In this document: piece after piece, positions 5,301 through 48,140 of the stretch | Numbering within the stretch: position 1 is the first letter of the stretch | Layout of the letters: each line of letters starts with the position of its first letter | Position numbers and translations under genes: made by a program | Origin: a virus | Taxonomy: Duplodnaviria > Caudoviricetes | Virus record (IMG/VR): IMGVR_UViG_3300033075_000275 | Location: 15,873-79,872 of that record | Strand: one strand, 5' to 3' | DNA: 64,000 nt | The notes under the pieces: model-generated | The model's database searches: none | What the model was told of the DNA's origin: nothing | The model's input: only the letters and a program-made list of their open reading frames with translations

Positions 5301-8213
5301 GTCGCCTGGGCTAATAACACCAACATCTTGTTGCCGTGCCAACTGCTCCATATAAACAAATCCCACCTGAGCACCACGGGTCAATCCACTATTATGTTGT
5401 GGTGCAAATACCTGATTTGGATTCAATCCAGAACCGCCACTAGTATATCTAACTCCCGCATTGGTTTGTGCCTGTGCTTTTGCTTGAATTTCTCCCAATT
5501 CTGACGCTAATACTCTCTTTATCGCCTTCTCTCGCTCTGTCGCGTCCTTAATGCCTCTTGTAGCATTCCTTATTTTTGTTTCTACATCTCTTACACGTTG
5601 CTTGATGGCTTCCTGTAATATTTCATCATTCGCAATAAAGTCATCCATTGCCTTACTTATTACTTGCGCTCGATCTGCCTCGGTAAATGGAACTTTTTTG
5701 TCGCTAGCCTTTTTTCTCGCTGCTGTCACTGCCGCTTTTGTAGCCTGTGTCAGTTTTGTCTCGACCCTACCAGTCTTTTCATCTGCTACAAACGTTGGAA
5801 GTTCAGAAAGCACCTGAGCCCTAGCGTTCCATTGCATTGTAACTGCCTTGCGCTCCTCTGGTGAAATTGCTAACTGGCGCATTGTAGTTCTCTGTTCAGG
5901 TGAAATATTCTTAATAGCCTCTTGAACCTTAGCAATATCCTGTGATAATATGTCACCAAGAACCTTTTTAGTTTTTGCATCTAACTTATCGGCAAATCTT
6001 TGAATCTCAGTTGCCCTTGCCATTAACATTGCATCAGTATCTATTTTGTTACCACTATCATCCTTGGTATATCTCTTATTCTTCGCTGGTAGCGCGCCAA
6101 AACCTTCAAATGCTGTTCGTGGAAAATATACGTCACCTATGCGCTCCTGTGCCGTCGCAACTATATTACCAACTGGCATATACATTCCAGCACCATATGC
6201 GGCTCTATCATATGAATGTACGCCCGTAGCACGACCGGTACCATTAACCGCAGCCTCCTGTGCAACCTCGGCAGCAGCCTTACGCGCAGCAGCACCAGAC
6301 GCAGTAGCGGCAGTAGCACTAACACTTGTAAGTTGTTCAAGTGCTTCGACAAGTTTCCGAACCGCGTTCTCCATAACATTTGTAGCCTTTGCCTGATCGA
6401 ACATACTCTTTTCAAGCAAGTCCCCCGCCTGTTTTGTTGCAACGTCCTGGGCGGTTAACATCTGGAAGGCTCCGACTCCACCGCTCACCAATGAACGCAT
6501 AGTTGCAATACCCTTGATCATATATCCAAGGAAGTTACCGAAAATACCGGCCATCATAATCAGTGGACCGACAATCGCCATCGCTATTGATCCCATGATC
6601 AACATAGATTTCATCGACTCTGGCAGAGCATTAAACTTTTCTAGTAGCGAGTCAACAACACCTAGAATCTTTGTTCCAAATTCTAAGAACTGTTCACCGA
6701 TTGGAATAAGTTGTGCCTGGATTCCTTCCCATGTCCGCTTGAATCTACCTGATGCCGATTCGGTTAGAATTTTGATTTCTCGATCAGCAACCGCCGCTAA
6801 TTCTGCCGTGGATGCACCCATCAACTTCATAACCTGAATGGTCTGCGAACCCTGTTCACCAATATTATTCAACAGGGCCGAGATTCTGGCGAATTGGAAC
6901 TTACCGAATACCTGCTCGATAACGCGGGCGCGGGAAAGATCGTCAAGGCCAGCCAACGACTTCTTGAATGCCATAATGGTAGGAATAAGTTTTCCAGCAT
7001 TGTTGTTGATGATACCAACAATATCCACTCCGAATGTCTTTAGAACCTCGGTAGTCTGCTTTGTCGGGTTAATCAGCGAAGCCAATGATGACTTGATCGC
7101 GTTAGCGGCCTCTGATGCGGGGATACCACCCTCGCGCATAGCAACCAGCATCAGAGTTAGGTCTTTAATGTCACCGCCAAGGCTCTTGACAACCGGCCCG
7201 GCCTTTGGAATGGCGGTCGTAATATCCTGTAGGCTGGCAGACGTCTGGTTTTCTACGGCGTTAAGGAAGTTAATGGAATTAGCGAGTTCCACCGTATTTT
7301 GCTTGAAAGCAGTTTGAATGGACAGGGTGGTTTTCATGGCGTCCTGTCTGTCAATTTCACCCAGGACGGCTAGACGTGTCGTCTGCTCTATCGAGCCCAT
7401 AAGTTTCTCGCCTTCAAGGCCGGTAGCAGCCAGTTCAGCCGCCAGGCCAAGCGTTTCCTTTACGGCAATACCATATGTACTGGCAATGGATGTTGCCACT
7501 GCAAGTGTTTGTGTGCGTAGTCGATCCATTGCCCCGGGATCAGCCATTGTCTGTAGCGAGTTACCATAAACCTTAGTAAGTCGAACTAACTGCTGATCCA
7601 CTTCATAGAAGGCCTTTGCAGATGCAGCGGCGAATATCATCGTTGGAATAGTAAGACCAACCATCAACTGACGACCGGCCCATTGAGTGTTCTTACCCCA
7701 ATTAATCATCGCGGTACCACCATCGGACAGTACCTTGTTGAATATCTGCAACTGCTTGCGAGCAAGCATGGTCTTTGAGGCATGAGTTGCCATGTCTACC
7801 CCGGTCGGGGTGTATACATCAGCAGCCAGCGCACCCGTAGCAGTGCGCCCCTTCGCCACAATAATACTACGCTCCATTGCGGTCTGCTGCTTTGCTAATT
7901 TTCTGATATTACTTTCACGCTTGGAAACAAAATTACCGAACTCCCTGGCATACTGACGGAGCGTGAGTTTCTGATCCATCAGTGATCTACCGAAAGTCTC
8001 GGTCGCATTGGCAATTTGTACCGTTTGCTTCGTATATTGACCAGACCTTGTTAAAGCAGTACCAAATGTATTCAGTGCAGTAGTGACGCCTTCTGCGTTG
8101 ACAGCATTCAGCGATGCGTTCAAACGTCCGATGGACGAGTTGACAGCAGTAATGTCAGCGATAAGATCAGCGAAATGACCATTTGCCCGGAACTCAATAT
8201 TAACTATTGACAT
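2301..8213 (-). CDS. Tape measure protein
   Basis: 1970 aa Ala-rich helical protein with TP901-type core (AFYEVDQQLVRLTKVYG...GIPASEAANAIK), hydrophobic segments, C-terminal HSGGPV..AGEFV motif; follows tail chaperones. Confidence 0.95.
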   Translation of the reverse strand: MSIVNIEFRANGHFADLIADITAVNSSIGRLNASLNAVNAEGVTTALNTFGTALTRSGQYTKQTVQIANATETFGRSLMDQKLTLRQYAREFGNFVSKRESNIRKLAKQQTAMERSIIVAKGRTATGALAADVYTPTGVDMATHASKTMLARKQLQIFNKVLSDGGTAMINWGKNTQWAGRQLMVGLTIPTMIFAAASAKAFYEVDQQLVRLTKVYGNSLQTMADPGAMDRLRTQTLAVATSIASTYGIAVKETLGLAAELAATGLEGEKLMGSIEQTTRLAVLGEIDRQDAMKTTLSIQTAFKQNTVELANSINFLNAVENQTSASLQDITTAIPKAGPVVKSLGGDIKDLTLMLVAMREGGIPASEAANAIKSSLASLINPTKQTTEVLKTFGVDIVGIINNNAGKLIPTIMAFKKSLAGLDDLSRARVIEQVFGKFQFARISALLNNIGEQGSQTIQVMKLMGASTAELAAVADREIKILTESASGRFKRTWEGIQAQLIPIGEQFLEFGTKILGVVDSLLEKFNALPESMKSMLIMGSIAMAIVGPLIMMAGIFGNFLGYMIKGIATMRSLVSGGVGAFQMLTAQDVATKQAGDLLEKSMFDQAKATNVMENAVRKLVEALEQLTSVSATAATASGAAARKAAAEVAQEAAVNGTGRATGVHSYDRAAYGAGMYMPVGNIVATAQERIGDVYFPRTAFEGFGALPAKNKRYTKDDSGNKIDTDAMLMARATEIQRFADKLDAKTKKVLGDILSQDIAKVQEAIKNISPEQRTTMRQLAISPEERKAVTMQWNARAQVLSELPTFVADEKTGRVETKLTQATKAAVTAARKKASDKKVPFTEADRAQVISKAMDDFIANDEILQEAIKQRVRDVETKIRNATRGIKDATEREKAIKRVLASELGEIQAKAQAQTNAGVRYTSGGSGLNPNQVFAPQHNSGLTRGAQVGFVYMEQLARQQDVGVISPGDVVGDASHLVSQDDTKRILTEQETARDKAVAEVEKASANTQKAAADKNEKAARDNKVAADKQDVAAQKQQEAAAQQAADPNMPIPMSTGAERRGRFADRMTNVGQVGMLASMSGMMGIGGEAMASITQFGFMASMIAPMIGQAAKSEKLAKTFSNMATSITSLSGRMSILATGATKVGGALGAVGKVGSSGIGMVAGALKALPGIMATVGRAASLMFGPWGVAIAGLITALWWLKNNTEEFNQKAVAQFRDSADMAGQLGYKLGKMAEPIRTSLIPAIDDARKKMDELSKAIDELPDNDAIKQMYSKIAESNNADQIVGTLKDFYIDKIVKGADPEKTKLMIQTILEKAGKEQYLLRVKTEIEALPTTKSGLVNKQGFAQEWVDQQIEFFGKGTYKKKVEDGISEFGRILQEAGVKNGDQWVNALRERLKTTDWKTAIDDISQQIRDNAEFTGPAGLPLATTSLQILSNQRLFDTENLQLAANNFGQIGFYVAEMNGQDFTKMRDAFAAGAKDAGLTATEWGAVVSQLDPAYRGAESFADMMNMAKINAEGVLAAQTAIGRAIQANIIAAREQALGDSAKLINDAFSGVQDKANRTMQNAKKAKTPKFTDPYKAQKEAIDDKIKAEDKEIKKIKEKQDAEKKAFDARKRQLDFEKSMRDQQIKYREAIAAGDFGAAALVKNDMESARIDFNNETAQNNKQDAIDAEIAKHEKIKESLQAQKDAYDKLTEKAREAYDAAKEAADAAAEAQNTAATSALESADKLKTRFNETVAYIMNHPELTEDKINGLLKPFTGILETLGVDAKTLFKGIKDNFKEMVAAQVKDIQVVANDIGINLAKLHLNTRDIGIIARNIGNGATGLAIFAGVSPATMAIVNGTFADIRVPWGPNRGGRNPDANVHGPSVPTRHSGGPVFGGVGSDVSIIAQAGEFVQQRAAVQKYGSGMMSAINSLTYDPATFGNSGSAQYNVIVNASGKDLDEEKVAKLVMDKMRLLEKKKGGYR

Positions 8214-31373: not shown

Positions 31374-31997
31374 ATGACACTACATCGTACATCTAAGTCT
31401 TGTGAATGGTGTGGGGCCTTGTTCCATAAAACTATAGAAAGAGACAGACATCAATTCAGTTTAAAGAAATTTTGCTCTAGAGAATGCCGCCGGGCTGCCA
31501 GAAAAACTATTGTTAGGCAAAATGGAAACCCTGGCGAGTATTGTCTCTGTGGTTGTGGCAACAAGGCCCCCATCGCAAAAACATCATCTGTAAGAGATCA
31601 AACAATCAGGGGAATGCCAGCACGTTACTTGCCCGGTCACGCTACCAGGCATAAGGCTGTAAAAACAGGCGGAATTGGAAAGTATGGATATGGTCGCTAT
31701 TTAAACGGCCAGGGATATATTATGCTACTGGTTTCCAGCATCCCGGCTGAGGATAGACTTTTAGTTGGTAATATGATCGCAAATTATGCTGATAAACAGT
31801 GCGTGCTTGAACATAGATACGTTATGGCAAAATATATCGGTAGACCCCTCGTGGATGGAGAAAACGTTCACCATAAAAATGGTAGACGAGACGACAACTC
31901 TATTGAAAATTTAGAACTCTGGAGAAATAGTCAGCCCAAGGGTCAGAGAGTCCAAGACGTTTATCCTACCTGTCATGGCTCTGGACTGGTGGATTAG
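31374..31997 (+). CDS. HNH endonuclease with Zn-finger N-terminus
   Basis: EHRYVM...ENVHHKNGRRDDNSIENLELW. Confidence 0.85.
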   Translation: MTLHRTSKSCEWCGALFHKTIERDRHQFSLKKFCSRECRRAARKTIVRQNGNPGEYCLCGCGNKAPIAKTSSVRDQTIRGMPARYLPGHATRHKAVKTGGIGKYGYGRYLNGQGYIMLLVSSIPAEDRLLVGNMIANYADKQCVLEHRYVMAKYIGRPLVDGENVHHKNGRRDDNSIENLELWRNSQPKGQRVQDVYPTCHGSGLVD

Positions 31998-32282: not shown

Positions 32283-32488
32283 GGCCGGATAAAGAGGAAG
32301 AACTACGAGTCATAGACCAGCAGATAAATACTGCTGAGAACAGTATTGCTGCACTACAGGCCCGTATCCTTGCGAAGAACAAGGAACTACAGCATTTCCA
32401 GCGAGAAATGTGGTCGATGATCATTGACTACAATGAGCAGATGGGACGACTAATAGCAAGACGTAAGGGGATTCTAAATGAAGATTGA
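32279..32488 (+). CDS. Coiled-coil hypothetical protein
   Basis: 69 aa, ATGA overlap with upstream gene. Confidence 0.6.
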   Translation: MRPDKEEELRVIDQQINTAENSIAALQARILAKNKELQHFQREMWSMIIDYNEQMGRLIARRKGILNED

Positions 32489-33596
32489 TGTTCTAGACCA
32501 TGGTTACGTCCGCCTTGTAGACCACCTTGGAGATGATCTTTCTATAGTTAACGCTGCTAGAGTATCTTATGACAAGGAGTCTAAGGACTTTAGCCCCGCC
32601 GACGCCCGACTCCTTGATTTTCTTATACGTGAGGACCACACCTCGCCCTTACGTCACGCGGCCCTGACCTTTGAGGTTTACGCTCCACTGATGGTGGCGC
32701 GTCAGCACTGGAAGTATGCCGTGGCATCTACCTTTGTCGATGATCAGAATGGCTGGAACGAGAGTTGCTTACCGGCATGGCAAGAACTATGGTCTTATGG
32801 AAACCTAAGAGTAACTGTACAAGATATTCTGGATGAAAAAGCATTACCACTCAGATCAGTAAATGATGATGGTGTGGTTGTTCCAAATAGAGTAAAAAAT
32901 ATTTGGCCCTCCGGAAAGCAGGAAATTATTACCATTATTGATGAGTTTGGTAATAAGATATCTTGTACCAAGAATCATAGAATAAAAACTCCTAGTGGCT
33001 GGGTGGAAGCCGGGGAACTTAAGGTTAATAATCTAGTTGGTCTATGCAACGAGCATCACTACTTGATTCATGGAAAGCGCCCTCAGGTATTTGGATATGG
33101 AAAGGTTGTGTCTATTAATTCTGCTGGAATTCATGAAACATATGATATTGAAATGGAACTAGAGTCTAATTTTGTGGCTGGCGGAATTGTTGTACATAAT
33201 TCCCGTCGATATGTCACTGAAAATGAAGAGTTTTATGTTCCTGAGCATTTTCGGGAGGCACCACCCAATAGCAAGCAGGGAAGCGGCGGAAACCTTGGTG
33301 CGTGGGCTAATATGACATGGCAAACCCGTCTGGATGCACATATTAAAAACTCTCTGTATTTTTATGACATGGCTTTAAAAGAGGGACTGGCTCCTGAGCA
33401 GGCCAGACTATTCTTGCCAGCCTACGGTTTGTATGTACGGTACCGCTGGACCGTCAGCCTGGCCGGTGTGCTACACTTCCTAGACCAGCGCCTCGCCCAC
33501 GACGCGCAGGTTGAGATACAGGCATACGCCGAGGCTGTGCGCGATCTGACCAAGACTGTATTTCCTAAGACATTGGAGGCTTGGCTTGCTAAGTGA
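32478..33596 (+). CDS. thyX: Flavin-dependent thymidylate synthase interrupted by a mini-intein
   Basis: VLDHGYVRLVD, NAARVSY, HTSPLRH, NES|SRRY, EQAR.FLP, HAQ-type DAQVEI motifs. Confidence 0.93.
   Translation: MKIDVLDHGYVRLVDHLGDDLSIVNAARVSYDKESKDFSPADARLLDFLIREDHTSPLRHAALTFEVYAPLMVARQHWKYAVASTFVDDQNGWNESCLPAWQELWSYGNLRVTVQDILDEKALPLRSVNDDGVVVPNRVKNIWPSGKQEIITIIDEFGNKISCTKNHRIKTPSGWVEAGELKVNNLVGLCNEHHYLIHGKRPQVFGYGKVVSINSAGIHETYDIEMELESNFVAGGIVVHNSRRYVTENEEFYVPEHFREAPPNSKQGSGGNLGAWANMTWQTRLDAHIKNSLYFYDMALKEGLAPEQARLFLPAYGLYVRYRWTVSLAGVLHFLDQRLAHDAQVEIQAYAEAVRDLTKTVFPKTLEAWLAK
32766..33200 (+). mobile_element. Mini-intein (145 aa) in ThyX
   Basis: Starts CLPAW, block B ISCTKNHRI, block F TYDIEM, ends VVHN followed by Ser; no endonuclease domain. 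Confidence 0.9.
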
Positions 33597-36300: not shown

Positions 36301-36381
36301 ATGGATTTCCCCGACCCCATGGCCGTAATGGCATGGTTCGCATTTTGGTTTATCCTTTTGCGGTTTATGGGTGATGACTAA
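36301..36381 (+). CDS. Membrane micropeptide
   Basis: MDFPDPMAVMAWFAFWFILLRFMGDD, AAGGT RBS. Confidence 0.5.
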   Translation: MDFPDPMAVMAWFAFWFILLRFMGDD

Positions 36382-36406
36382 AGTCTGGGACTAAGGTCCC
36401 GACTTT
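36380..36406 (+). terminator. Hairpin terminator
   Basis: AAAGTC-T-GGGAC/GTCCC-GACTTT. Confidence 0.6.
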
Positions 36407-36408
36407 CT

Positions 36409-36585
36409 GTTAGCTGAATCTTAACCCTCCCTTAGCCTCGGCTTAGGGGAGGGTTTCTTAGCTTAATCTTAACCCCTTCTTAGCTTGGTCTTAGCTAAAT
36501 CAACACGCCCGCAATCTTAGCTAAACCTTAACCACCCCTTAGCTTGCTCTTAACCGCGCGCCCGCCTTAGCTTAATCTTAACCTT
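36409..36585. repeat. 11-bp-phased CTTA(A/G)C array
   Basis: CTTAR at 36420, 36431, 36442; 36457, 36468, 36479, 36490; 36516, 36527, 36538, 36549; 36566, 36577 (extra at 36462, 36571). Confidence 0.9.
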
Positions 36586-37373: not shown

Positions 37374-37540
37374 ATGATTCTGTGGATCGTATTTCTTTTG
37401 TTTGTCGCAACAATCCTGTTTTGGAGGCCATAATGGTGCTTTTCGCCGGGCGCAATGAGTGCGATCACCTTTTCGCACACATGACCATTTCCATGCATTT
37501 CGTTTGCGTGCATTGCGGAAGGGTTATCACAACTAAATAG
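37374..37540 (+). CDS. Two coupled micro-ORFs: TM peptide MILWIVFLLFVATILFWRP (37374-37433) and Zn-ribbon peptide (37433-37540)
   Basis: TAATG overlap; GGAGG RBS for second. Confidence 0.45.
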
Positions 37541-37541
37541 G

Positions 37542-37587
37542 CAAAATTAGGCAAATTTCCGAATTTTGGCAAATTTGCCTAATTTTG
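37542..37587. repeat. Perfect 16-bp AT-rich inverted repeat
   Basis: CAAAATTAGGCAAATT (37542-37557) / AATTTGCCTAATTTTG (37572-37587). Confidence 0.85.
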
Positions 37588-37598
37588 TGCAAATTTTT

Positions 37599-37673
37599 CT
37601 TAACTAAAATTTAACTGTCTCTTAACCTGGCCTTAACCGGGCGCCCGCCTTAACCCTTTCTTAACGTTACGAT
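37599..37673. repeat. Second 11-bp-phased CTTAAC array around a degenerate cassette core
   Basis: (C/T)TTAAC at 37599, 37610, 37621, 37632, 37649, 37660; CGGGCGCCCG at 37638; TTACGAT at 37667. Confidence 0.85.
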
Positions 37674-40026: not shown

Positions 40027-40313
40027 TGGGATACAAATTCACCGCGCATGGTAATTGGATGACCATGCACTTTGACGCGCCGCTGACAAGCGCGGGCGTT
40101 GTCAACGTTGGCGGTTACTGGTGGAATTCCCTTCGGGCCGACCCTTACCGGGCCGCTGCCAAATTCGCCAATGAGCGTACCCCATTCCGTAATGACCCTA
40201 ATTGCCCTACGGCAATGGAATTCTGGGCCGGGGTTACCGATGATGACCTTGCCGAATTCGACAAGCGTAATCAGGAATTGTCTGATAATGTTGCTAAGTG
40301 GGGTTCTGAGTAA
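40026..40313 (+). CDS. Hypothetical protein
   Basis: 95 aa, TAATG coupling. Confidence 0.65.
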   Translation: MGYKFTAHGNWMTMHFDAPLTSAGVVNVGGYWWNSLRADPYRAAAKFANERTPFRNDPNCPTAMEFWAGVTDDDLAEFDKRNQELSDNVAKWGSE

Positions 40314-40320
40314 TTCCAGG

Positions 40321-40437
40321 CCCGTGATTACTCTCCGTAATCGCGGGCGCCCGGCCCAGGCCGGGCTGTCAAGTAGTTACGATGTGACATAGGACACCCC
40401 TGAAAATATTGACACAGAGACTCGCAGGGTGTAGTCT
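40321..40437 (+). repeat. Regulatory cassette copy 4
   Basis: Hairpin 40321-40347, core 40344, TTGACA-17-TAGTCT. Confidence 0.95.
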
Positions 40438-40443
40438 AAAGAC

Positions 40444-40605
40444 ACAACAGAACAGAGGATGACAGCAGGAGCGGGCTAGACCGAGGGATTTAGTCACCCC
40501 CATGAAAGCCCACTACTCCCCAAGGGTGGACGCCGGATTGACGATCACAACTCCCAGGGACATAGGGGAAAGTCGAACCCGCTTCTGCCGTGATCTTCTG
40601 TTCGG
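40444..40605 (+). ncRNA. Candidate structured ncRNA (~160 nt)
   Basis: 40450-40475 pairs with 40578-40603 (24 of 26 positions paired incl. G.U); inner helices; own promoter upstream and a new promoter immediately downstream. Confidence 0.7.
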
Positions 40606-40610
40606 ACAAC

Positions 40611-40639
40611 TTGACAAGTCAATAGCGTGGCGATATACT
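40611..40639 (+). promoter_or_regulatory. Promoter TTGACA-17-TATACT for tRNA cluster
   Basis: Near-consensus hexamers. Confidence 0.85.
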
Positions 40640-40684
40640 AGTCTCCTACCGGGGCGCATCCAAAGGGACCGGCCCGGTAGTGTA

Positions 40685-40764
40685 TGCCATGGGCGCTGGG
40701 ACGCATACGAGTCTGTAAAACTTGTCTCATATGGGTAGCAAGGTTCGATTCCTTGACATGGCAC
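40685..40764 (+). tRNA. tRNA-Tyr(GTA)
   Basis: CGAGT-CTGTAAA-ACTTG anticodon arm, long variable arm, CAAGG-TTCGATT-CCTTG T arm; slightly irregular acceptor stem. Confidence 0.8.
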
Positions 40765-40765
40765 A

Positions 40766-40828
40766 AATCAAGGGTAATCCGGCTCGACGGCGACGGCTGT
40801 TGTGGTGTTCGAATCACCTCCCTTGATT
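40766..40828 (+). pseudogene. tRNA-like element without a canonical anticodon arm
   Basis: 9-bp acceptor-like stem AATCAAGGG/CCCTTGATT, GGTG-TTCGAAT-CACC T arm; middle only 29 nt. Confidence 0.55.
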
Positions 40829-40830
40829 AT

Positions 40831-40905
40831 GGCCCCATCGTCTAATGGCTAGGATTGCGCCCTTTCAAGGCGCAGGAAGGGGATCGAAACCCCTTGGGGC
40901 TACCA
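40831..40905 (+). tRNA. tRNA-Glu(TTC)
   Basis: GCGCC-CTTTCAA-GGCGC; encoded CCA. Confidence 0.92.
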
Positions 40906-40931: not shown

Positions 40932-41228
40932 ATGGCATATTCTGATATCGAAAAAAGAAATGAATGGTTTCGCAAACGCTATCAAGATAATCTTGAGTTT
41001 GTTCAAAACTATAAAATGAAAATCGGATGTTCTGACTGTGGATGGAATGAGCATCACGCGGGGTTAGAATTTGATCACGTAAATCCTCATGTGCGCGGAA
41101 CAGTTTCGTCACAATTAGGAAAGTCAAGAAGAGTTATACTAGAAGAAATATCTGCTTGTGAGGTAGTTTGTTCTAGGTGTCATTCACTTAGAACATGGAA
41201 CAGAAGAGCCCAGATGGTTCAAGAGTAA
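40932..41228 (+). CDS. HNH endonuclease inside tRNA array
   Basis: CSDC...LEFDHVNP...LEEISACEVVCSRCH; AGGA RBS; AT-rich. Confidence 0.8.
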   Translation: MAYSDIEKRNEWFRKRYQDNLEFVQNYKMKIGCSDCGWNEHHAGLEFDHVNPHVRGTVSSQLGKSRRVILEEISACEVVCSRCHSLRTWNRRAQMVQE

Positions 41229-41257
41229 GATTTCGGGTTCGATTCCCGTTGGGACTA
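41207..41257 (+). pseudogene. tRNA remnant lacking anticodon arm
   Basis: D-loop-like TGGTTCAAGAGTAAGAT joined directly to CGGG-TTCGATT-CCCG and TTGGGACT; overlaps HNH 3' end. Confidence 0.5.
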
Positions 41258-41366
41258 CGTAGCAAAACTATCGGCAAGGCCAGTCGGTAGAAAGGGAGGG
41301 CGCTGTAGCGAAAGCAGGCCCTAACAAAAACCGTCAATGACGGTAACAAAGCCTCCCAAATATAAT

Positions 41367-41440
41367 TCCGGTGTAGTGTAATGGTAACACAAGTGCTTCC
41401 AAACCATTTGATAGGGGTTCGATTCCTCTCACCGGGGCCA
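41367..41440 (+). tRNA. tRNA-Trp(CCA)
   Basis: TT-CCA-AA loop, GGTTCGATTCC T arm, encoded CCA. Confidence 0.85.
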
Positions 41441-41441
41441 A

Positions 41442-41513
41442 GCCTCCATAGTGAATGGGTTATCATGCATCCCTGTCAAGGATGCGAAACGGGTCCGAGT
41501 CCCGTTGGAGGCG
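41442..41513 (+). tRNA. tRNA-Asp(GTC)
   Basis: CATCC-CTGTCAA-GGATG; GCCTCCA/TGGAGGC acceptor. Confidence 0.88.
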
Positions 41514-41519
41514 CGTTAA

Positions 41520-41590
41520 TCTCCTATAGTTCAATGGCAGAACGGATGGCTGTTAACCATCTAATCTAGGTTCGAATCCTGGTGGGAGAG
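41520..41590 (+). tRNA. tRNA-Asn(GTT)
   Basis: GATGG-CTGTTAA-CCATC; TCTCCTA/TGGGAGA acceptor. Confidence 0.9.
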
Positions 41591-41636
41591 CGGGCGAGAG
41601 ATACCAGGGTTTAAACGTATTCCTCTCCACCCCTAA

Positions 41637-41707
41637 GGGGGTATAGTATAATGGCAAAACCGCTGGCTCTTACCCAGCAGATCGGAGTTCGACTCTCCGT
41701 GCCCCTA
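41637..41707 (+). tRNA. tRNA-Lys(CTT)
   Basis: GCTGG-CTCTTAC-CCAGC; CGGAG-TTCGACT-CTCCG. Confidence 0.85.
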
Positions 41708-41709
41708 CT

Positions 41710-41820
41710 GTTACCGTGAGTGATCGCGGGCGCCCGGCCCAGGCCGGGCTGTCAAGTGTTTACGATGTGATCTAGGACACTTCTAAATATCTTGACAGAT
41801 GACAACTTTTACTATAGCCT
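41710..41820 (+). repeat. Regulatory cassette copy 5 (degenerate hairpin 1)
   Basis: Core 41727, TGTGA-N6-ACACT, TTGACA-17-TAGCCT. Confidence 0.92.
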
Positions 41821-41826
41821 AGTTAC

Positions 41827-42096
41827 ATGAGCCGCACAGACAAGACCGACCCGTGGTGGACTCAGGGTACATGGGTTCCCGTACACGATCACTCTAGGGG
41901 AGCGTGTACTCTCCCTGCCAATCCGCCCTGTCACCACATCACCACGTCATACCGTCACGGTAAGTGCCACTGGACTAAGCGTTGGGATGAGGTCAAGTGG
42001 TCCCGTGACAAGTCGGCTGATCGTGCCGAGCGGGAATGGCTTACTCGCAAGACCCGCTATCGTCGTAACCGTTTGCAGAACGATGATTGGGATTGA
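41827..42096 (+). CDS. Basic His/Cys/Trp-rich hypothetical protein (leaderless)
   Basis: MSRTDKTDPWW...; ATG at predicted +1. Confidence 0.75.
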   Translation: MSRTDKTDPWWTQGTWVPVHDHSRGACTLPANPPCHHITTSYRHGKCHWTKRWDEVKWSRDKSADRAEREWLTRKTRYRRNRLQNDDWD

Positions 42097-45628: not shown

Positions 45629-45634
45629 GACCCC

Positions 45635-45703
45635 ATGGACCTACTATTGATGATCTTGTTAGGTGTGACCCTCGTCATACTCGCAGTCACTTGGAAGCCC
45701 TAG
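45635..45703 (+). CDS. Leaderless membrane micropeptide
   Basis: MDLLLMILLGVTLVILAVTWKP; ATG at predicted +1. Confidence 0.5.
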   Translation: MDLLLMILLGVTLVILAVTWKP

Positions 45704-45729
45704 ACATAGCCGCCCGAATCTGCTAGACT
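45701..45729 (+). promoter_or_regulatory. Promoter TAGACA-17-TAGACT
   Basis: Directly upstream of DUF932 gene. Confidence 0.65.
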
Positions 45730-45760
45730 TGCATCACAAGCCAATCAAGGAAGGAACAAC

Positions 45761-47615: not shown

Positions 47616-48140
47616 ATGATGGCAACTAAGAGAGAGTGGCTAGCGGCTCAGGGCCTAGCAAAGCCCGGCACCCGTGGCCGATTCGGTAAGGCAGCGCATG
47701 AGGCTCTAGAGCAGGCAGAAAAGGACGGCATCGTTTTCGATGACCCGACTCCCAAGCCTGCTAAGGAGGTGGCGACGGAGGGAGCGGAGGCTCCCTCCAA
47801 GCCTAGTCGGCCCACGTCTGAGAACGCAGAAATTAGGGCGTGGGCCAGGGATAACGGATTTACTATCGGTGAGCGCGGCAGAATCTCGGCAGAAATTCTA
47901 GCCGCCTACCATGGTGATCCTATTCCAGATAATGACTATGTACCACCGCCACCCCAGGTCCGGGTCCGCCCGGCGCGGGTGATGTACGGATTCGACAATG
48001 ACGGACATAAGATCGGGTTTGCTACCTGTGGACGATGCGCAGAACACATCTCGTACTGCGAGTGTTCAGAGGGAATCAAGACACCTTTCGGCGTGAACGC
48101 TATTGACGAGTCCCTTACGGAGTGGTACACTTCCGTATGA
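47616..48140 (+). CDS. Lsr2-like protein: two RGR AT-hook domains plus Cys cluster
   Basis: KREWL..QGL..PGTRGRFG; AEIRAWARDNGFTIGERGRISAEILAAY; CGRC....CEC. Confidence 0.8.
   Translation: MMATKREWLAAQGLAKPGTRGRFGKAAHEALEQAEKDGIVFDDPTPKPAKEVATEGAEAPSKPSRPTSENAEIRAWARDNGFTIGERGRISAEILAAYHGDPIPDNDYVPPPPQVRVRPARVMYGFDNDGHKIGFATCGRCAEHISYCECSEGIKTPFGVNAIDESLTEWYTSV

Follow-up and report, generated by a model that had tools for sequence, protein, structure and literature searches.

The element examined here lies in the genome of an uncultured, Streptomyces-type phage (Duplodnaviria; Caudoviricetes), represented by the 79.9-kb IMG/VR virus contig IMGVR_UViG_3300033075_000275, which has a completeness rating of 63%. 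The window, that is, the whole stretch of 64,000 nucleotides (64 kb) that was analyzed, corresponds to bases 15873-79872 of this contig, and coordinates below are those of the window unless stated otherwise. Streptomyces cluster BE phages of the family Stanwilliamsviridae, among them Tomas and Jay2Jay, have portal proteins with 59% identity to that of the contig, and no portal relative exceeds this value. Near the genes for ribonucleotide reductase and for structural proteins, the gene order mirrors that of Tomas, and the contig carries tRNAs and a tmRNA, as do cluster BE phages. Every gene between 30.7 and 48 kb is on the plus strand. At 42.5-48 kb, the GP88, DUF932 and Lsr2-like genes have their counterparts in the terminal-repeat early region of Tomas. 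A ThyX thymidylate synthase gene (32478-33596) holds an intein (Pfam Intein_splicing, residues 110-241).

This region is organized in cassettes, which are separated by a repeated boundary element composed of a covarying hairpin, an invariant GC palindrome, TTACGAT, a -35 box, a 17-nt spacer and a -10 box of the form TANNNT. The boundary core is present in 10 exact copies at 38.5-46.9 kb, and nine copies were aligned. The features of the cassette that contains the candidate element are as follows.

40322-40408, plus strand: copy of the cassette-boundary repeat (repeat families D1/D2), with hairpin 1, the GC palindrome core, TTACGAT and a TGTGA-N6-ACAC box
40409-40437, plus strand: promoter P1, TTGACA-17-TAGTCT
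40444-40605, plus strand: candidate element, ~160 nt, non-coding, reaching from the predicted +1 almost to P2, with an MFE of -66 kcal/mol
40450-40475, plus strand: 5' arm of the clamp helix, purine-rich, single copy in the window
40476-40577, plus strand: interior loop, 102 nt, U-poor, containing CUAGAC (40476-81) and GUCGAA (40572-77)
40578-40603, plus strand: 3' arm of the clamp helix, pyrimidine-rich, with no U tract after it
40611-40639, plus strand: promoter P2, TTGACA-17-TATACT
40646-40681, plus strand: leader hairpin between P2 and tRNA-Tyr, 36 nt, -22.1 kcal/mol, z -2.76
40682-40905, plus strand: tRNA-Tyr (40682-40762), a tRNA-like minihelix (40766-40828) and tRNA-Glu (40831-40905), from ARAGORN, Rfam and folding
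40932-41228, plus strand: HNH endonuclease gene within the tRNA operon
41367-41708, plus strand: tRNA-Trp, tRNA-Asp, tRNA-Asn and tRNA-Lys, which end the cassette; the next boundary repeat begins at 41705

Promoter P1 belongs to the repeated boundary element, and its -35 and -10 boxes occupy the same position as in nine other cassette copies. Its +1 is predicted near 40444. This is supported by the next cassette (41728; window 41792-41829), where the ATG of an 89-aa gene, at 41827, is located exactly 7 nt past the -10 and provides a calibration. This spacing suggests that the mRNA of the 89-aa gene is leaderless; leaderless mRNAs are common in actinobacteria. P2 matches the promoter consensus at 11 of 12 positions, is not preceded by a boundary repeat, and is the top promoter-like site within 36-46 kb. 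A first-pass annotation of the sequence had proposed both promoters, the former as a cassette promoter with its +1 at 40444 and the latter as a new promoter at 40611, and both placements stand. Its description of the element as a stand-alone RNA that fills a cassette slot is wrong, as the next boundary, at 41705, follows tRNA-Lys. The order after the element is P2, six tRNAs together with the minihelix and the HNH gene, and then this boundary. As there is no boundary repeat between the element and the tRNAs, the 160 nt constitute the first segment of a tandem-promoter tRNA-operon cassette.

The HNH gene shows the H-N-H motifs in its translation, its ORF is present in the protein collection, and tblastn aligns it at 36% with an HNH endonuclease gene from phage Tomas. 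The early region of Tomas that is homologous to the surroundings of the element contains no tRNA genes, indicating that the module of leader, P2, tRNAs and HNH gene is lineage-specific. The tRNA-Tyr(GTA) at 40682-40762, called by ARAGORN, is atypical: it does not pass the Rfam tRNA model and reaches only 22-27 bits with the tRNA-Sec model. The minihelix at 40766-40828 (z -2.62) combines a 9-bp acceptor-like stem with a T arm (GGUG-UUCGAAU-CACC), and where an anticodon arm would be expected it has a 7-bp hairpin closed by a 4-nt loop; neither ARAGORN nor Rfam calls it. Right after the HNH stop codon, in a 138-nt non-coding stretch ahead of tRNA-Trp, there is a T-arm-like hairpin (41221-41268; CGGG-UUCGAUU-CCCG), which may be a remnant of a tRNA that was disrupted by the endonuclease gene. 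Among the cassettes, the sole other long non-coding leader is that of the DUF932 cassette (45629-45760), where ~130 nt of 5' UTR separate the -10 from the start codon.

The element is non-coding, as had been stated in the first-pass annotation. Gene callers placed no ORF in 40444-40605, and the sole plus-strand ORF of at least 25 aa (40502-40738), which runs through P2 into tRNA-Tyr, is absent from a 15-billion-protein collection and has no tblastn match. None of the ORFs of the element region that were looked up in the protein collection was present there. In tblastn searches no forward frame of the element showed protein similarity, and a pseudogene remnant was rejected on the same grounds.

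Searches for homologues of the RNA were likewise negative. Against Rfam 15, only the tRNAs and the tmRNA of the contig scored above gathering thresholds, and the element itself matched nothing at E<=10 with permissive filters. Neither blastn of 40300-40700 nor megablast of the 30-50 kb region against 50,697 phage records revealed a homologue of the element, nor did blastn and nhmmer against 82 loci. No match was obtained in IMG/VR with the exact arm pattern, with a degenerate pattern of the boundary core or with a 25-mer of tRNA-Tyr used as an anchor, in JGI metagenomes with the boundary core and an interior 23-mer, or in 185,579 species genomes with an arm 22-mer. A single-sequence model, R1, recovered its own locus as a control and matched nothing in Tomas and nine IMG/VR relatives. 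The element is single-copy in the 79.9-kb contig, and neither a second copy nor a close phage relative was found in phage records, IMG/VR, JGI metagenomes or species genomes, with the exception of one 833-nt fragment. This fragment, a contig of NCBI assembly GCA_041442895.1, encodes the one relative (82% identity) of the 95-aa protein encoded upstream of the element. A 70-aa gene follows directly after the 95-aa homologue in this contig, in place of a boundary repeat and the element, and this difference in gene order points to reshuffling of cassettes between relatives. For the downstream 89-aa protein, no relative was found.

The two ends of the element can form a long helix, here termed the clamp. 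The arms (40450-40475 and 40578-40603) pair at 24 of 26 positions, through 22 Watson-Crick and two G-U pairs, each with a probability of at least 0.99; the two mismatches are G/G (40461/40592) and A/C (40464/40589). Past a small internal loop, GAC (40479-81) forms three additional pairs with GUC (40572-74). These findings confirm what the first-pass annotation had read from the sequence, namely, the 24 of 26 pairings and a CUAGAC that faces GUCGAA at the top of the stem. The inner helix it had placed between CCCCCAUG and CAUAGGGG, however, is absent from both the MFE and the centroid structures, and its 3' half pairs elsewhere, with GGG at 40566-68 bound to CCC at 40509-11 (p 0.96).

The clamp starts 6 nt downstream of the predicted +1, and its 3' end is 7 nt upstream of the P2 -35; it measures 154 nt from helix end to helix end and ~160 nt from the predicted +1. 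It is the top ungapped long-range helix on either strand of the 64 kb (score 20; spans 40-260 nt). Its statistical significance is modest, as 3 of 40 dinucleotide shuffles of the window also reach a score of 20. Both G-U pairs exist as pairs on the plus, transcribed strand only, which favors this strand only slightly. The clamp occupies one of the few non-coding gaps in the window, and its ends meet the predicted +1 and the next -35. These two points make a moderate case that the clamp is probably not a product of chance. In Tomas, a scan of 86 kb that included the tRNA-rich 90-134 kb region found no analogous long helix above chance in intergenic or tRNA regions.

The interior gives no sign of selection for structure beyond chance. 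On the plus strand, the interior (40476-40577) is less stable than 198 of 200 shuffles (z +1.86), and on the minus strand it is no better than chance (z -0.35). The framed 162-nt element does have a z of -4.65, but this value is a consequence of the outer stem and of the choice of frame. When compared with all native 165-nt windows of the 64 kb, with correction for G+C, the element has a z of -2.1 and ranks 85 of 4256. Moreover, its reverse complement folds more stably than the plus strand (-74.9 versus -66 kcal/mol). The first-pass description of a structured non-coding RNA therefore stands in part: the element is non-coding, is fed by a promoter, has a long closing helix and matches no described family, but neither the interior nor the rank among native windows bears out a structured RNA as a whole. 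The strongest G+C-corrected plus-strand folding in the window, above that of the element, occurs at 47776-47940, 31411-31575, 36301-36480 and 37426-37620 (z -4.5 to -3.3). The region at 36.3-37.6 kb is repeat-rich and apparently non-coding (repeat families D3 and D6-D8). A Rho-loading site was also considered for the interior and rejected, the C/G ratio being merely 1.11.

One reading of these data is that the helix has no function. The spacer between the tandem promoters would then contain an inverted repeat that arose by chance or is decaying, and that perhaps remained when an older cassette received the tRNA/HNH module. The shuffles that equal the clamp score and the rank of the element among native windows are consistent with this, as are an interior less structured than chance and a folding energy that shows no strand preference. 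The element is also a single copy with no homologues, and the syntenic region of Tomas lacks the module. Against these points, the best helix of the window falls in a rare non-coding gap with ends that coincide with the predicted +1 and the next -35, and no coding remnant is detectable there. On balance we consider a functionless helix somewhat unlikely.

The inverted repeat could, alternatively, act as DNA, either as a miniature inverted-repeat insertion or as a palindrome that is bound by a protein. Like miniature inverted-repeat transposable elements, the element is non-coding, ~154 bp in total, with 26-bp terminal inverted repeats that surround 102 bp, and its two strands fold equally well. 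ACAAC is found near both flanks (40444-48 and 40606-10). However, the left copy is offset from its arm by 1 nt and the right copy by 2 nt, and hence they do not form a clean target duplication. Unlike such transposable elements, the element has no related copies in exact-match searches: it occurs once in the contig, and exact 22-26-mers are absent from the viral, genome and metagenome collections. There is also no transposase or invertase nearby. A DNA-level role is quite improbable.

The same open interior can be viewed from the standpoint of an RNA that acts in trans, in which case the element would possibly be an undescribed phage RNA, as proposed in the first-pass annotation. A discrete RNA of a new kind, made early from P1, might use the clamp to present the open 100-nt loop as a decoy, a sponge or a surface for base pairing. 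The element has its own promoter, its ends are joined by the clamp, and its loop is unusually free of structure (z +1.86), as is expected of an accessible binding surface, although random sequence sometimes also yields an open loop. No terminator signal, conservation, recognizable motif or partner was identified for such an RNA, and we regard this explanation as unlikely. A more specific form of it, in which a discrete early RNA of a new class offers the ~100-nt loop as a decoy or platform, maybe for the Ro60 of this phage lineage or for a host RNA-processing or defense factor, is distinctly unlikely. Phage T4 provides a precedent, as it produces stable RNAs of unknown role from its tRNA cluster. 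The element resembles T4 species 1 and 2 (rnaC and rnaD) in being a small non-coding RNA beside phage tRNAs in a region with a homing endonuclease gene. However, the T4 RNAs are demonstrated stable transcripts, whereas the RNA of the element is predicted, and no sequence relation is expected between them.

Two known RNA classes had been suggested as counterparts. The first, a 6S/Ms1-like RNA, would sequester RNA polymerase by imitating open promoter DNA. The predicted MFE structure of the element is indeed rod-like, with a closing stem, an asymmetric open region (~33 nt versus 9 nt) and an imperfect apical hairpin (40509-40568), and the element falls in the 150-200 nt size class of 6S RNA (RF00013 and related families), with which it shares the rod-like outline and open center. 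Beyond this outline we found no support for the suggestion. In contrast to 6S RNA, the element has no model match, as searches of Rfam, including the 6S families, returned nothing at E<=10; no sign of a stable terminal stem was seen, and its apical part is no more stable than chance. Further, a decoy of this kind would also be expected to hit phage transcription, since the promoters of the phage are themselves of the host sigma-70 type. A polymerase mimic is very unlikely. A retron msr-msd was also tried and rejected, as a reverse transcriptase gene (RVT_1, E<=1) is absent from the contig.

The second suggestion was a Y RNA. Bacterial YrlA RNAs are defined by a GNCGAAN0-1G motif close to the 5' end, within the stem that binds Ro60 (PMC4201824). 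They also have tRNA-like T and D arms, are 80-130 nt long and are encoded no more than 4 kb from the Ro60 gene, on its strand (Chen et al. 2014, PMC4201824). The general outline of the element is compatible with this class (RF02553; PMC4201824), as its paired ends form a long stem that closes a large loop, with a GNCGAA-like hexamer, GUCGAA, at the loop end of the stem. Moreover, the related Stanwilliamsviridae encode Ro60 and carry Y-like RNAs, and the contig is only 63% complete, so that a divergent Y RNA might be bound by a phage Ro60 encoded in the missing part of the genome.

The details, however, do not agree with this assignment. The only GNCGAA of the element (40572-77) is on the 3' strand of the stem, opposite to that in YrlA, and is followed by CC, so that the G of the motif is missing. 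There is no GGUUCGA-type loop in 40444-40605, in line with the first-pass observation that a tRNA-like T loop is lacking, and there is no D arm; at ~160 nt, the element also exceeds the 80-130 nt of Y RNAs. A search for a TROVE gene gave no match at E<=1 in the 79.9-kb contig (63% complete), while control genomes were detected; hence there is none in the contig within 4 kb of the element. The YrlA model RF02553 (gathering threshold 69 bits) had no match on the element at E<=10.

As Tomas and 115 Streptomyces phage records encode a Ro-like protein, the corresponding RNAs of the family provide a comparison. In six Stanwilliamsviridae phages, one or two Y-like RNAs per phage are located in unannotated gaps just upstream of the Ro-like (TROVE) gene. 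The phage Y-like RNAs share a 5' GGGUCGAAUGA-type motif, UCGGUUAUC and a 3' strand paired with the 5' end. They come in two forms, of which the long one has a T arm and the short one has none, and 8 of 21 pairs show compensatory changes. Their positions, given in the coordinates of each locus or of Tomas, are as follows.

L105:7119-7221 and 7233-7300: Y-like RNAs of Tomas (phage Tomas 83118-83299), with another at Tomas 74297-74376
L114:619-727: Y-like RNA of another phage
L115:620-729: Y-like RNA of another phage
L116:913-1023 and 1034-1102: Y-like RNAs of another phage
L117:617-681 and 706-834: Y-like RNAs of another phage
L118:544-607 and 634-763: Y-like RNAs of another phage

A covariance model built from six of these Stanwilliamsviridae RNAs (R2) recovered the short Tomas copy, on which it was not trained (E 2e-4), as well as the third Tomas copy, while the Rfam YrlA model did not detect the Tomas Y-like RNAs at E<=10. 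R2 thus provides a stricter comparison, tailored to this lineage. Applied to 40444-40605 with filters off, it gave no plus-strand match at E<=10, and its sole minus-strand match was a fragment of 2.6 bits. Elsewhere in the contig, the YrlA model and R2 gave only partial matches to T arms, at real tRNAs. With the motif strand, T arm, length, TROVE search and both covariance models all negative, it is highly improbable that the element is a Y RNA, and neither this reading nor the 6S one needs to be retained. No description of Y RNAs in Streptomyces phages was found in the literature searched.

Taken together, an unstructured interior, the lack of detectable relatives and a position at the head of a tRNA operon indicate that the element is most likely a leader or processing hairpin, rather than a Y RNA or a 6S RNA. 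The best explanation for the 160 nt is that they form the untranslated leader of a phage tRNA-operon cassette with two tandem promoters, and we tentatively propose that the element serves this operon in cis, as a leader, processing or termination hairpin that acts on the transcripts from P1. In this proposal, transcripts that start at P1 would fold into the long duplex, which would clamp a ~100-nt open loop. The duplex would then act in cis, either as an RNase III-type processing site or as a U-less ("I-shaped") terminator or insulator. With either function, transcripts from P1 would be terminated or cleaved directly ahead of P2, which would give the tRNA precursor a clean start at P2. A discrete RNA of ~155 nt might be released, either as a by-product or as the product.

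Several observations argue for such a cis-acting leader. Its helix, in which 24 of 26 positions pair, outscores every other long-range helix of the 64 kb, it starts 6 nt past the predicted +1 and stops 7 nt short of the P2 -35, and its G-U pairs form only on the plus strand, the strand of all genes at 30.7-48 kb. The tRNAs are not preceded by a boundary repeat of their own, the element has neither an ORF nor protein similarity, and the neighboring GP88, DUF932 and Lsr2-like genes align with an early region of Tomas that is devoid of tRNAs. The absence of a selected fold in the interior also fits a role that is carried by the duplex alone. Duplexes of at least ~20 bp are substrates of RNase III, for example, in T7 early sites and in the stems that flank rRNAs, and the plus strand provides a near-continuous duplex of this kind. 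Tandem promoters are common in stable-RNA operons, and actinobacterial terminators often lack U tracts. The sequence after the helix is GGACAAC, which does not correspond to a canonical terminator, and a consensus scan that covers only the U-tract type reported no site.

Other observations weigh against a cis-acting leader. No relative with the element was found that could show covariation; the helix is of modest significance, with 3 of 40 shuffles equal to it, and no similar helix was found in 86 kb of Tomas. In addition, a 102-nt loop is atypical of known RNase III sites or terminators, and the minus strand folds at least as well as the plus strand, as a palindrome at the DNA level would. 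Comparison with rRNA-flanking stems, T7 RNase III sites and tandem P1/P2 operons illustrates both sides. In common with these systems, the element is an untranslated stable-RNA leader with two promoters and a duplex of more than 20 bp formed by distant segments. However, the predicted duplex of the element encloses only 102 nt of apparently meaningless sequence and not a mature RNA. A further difference is its location between the two promoters, and the relatives show no counterpart.

As a single-sequence prediction with no conservation, the element has so far been of mostly negative value. Should the helix prove to terminate or cleave transcripts, it would reveal how a regulated early promoter is kept apart from a strong tRNA promoter in large actinophages, and it would provide a compact insulator part for Streptomyces. 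The more useful by-product of the analysis is the set of conserved, covarying Y-like RNAs beside Ro60 in the Stanwilliamsviridae, which are unannotated in the records examined.
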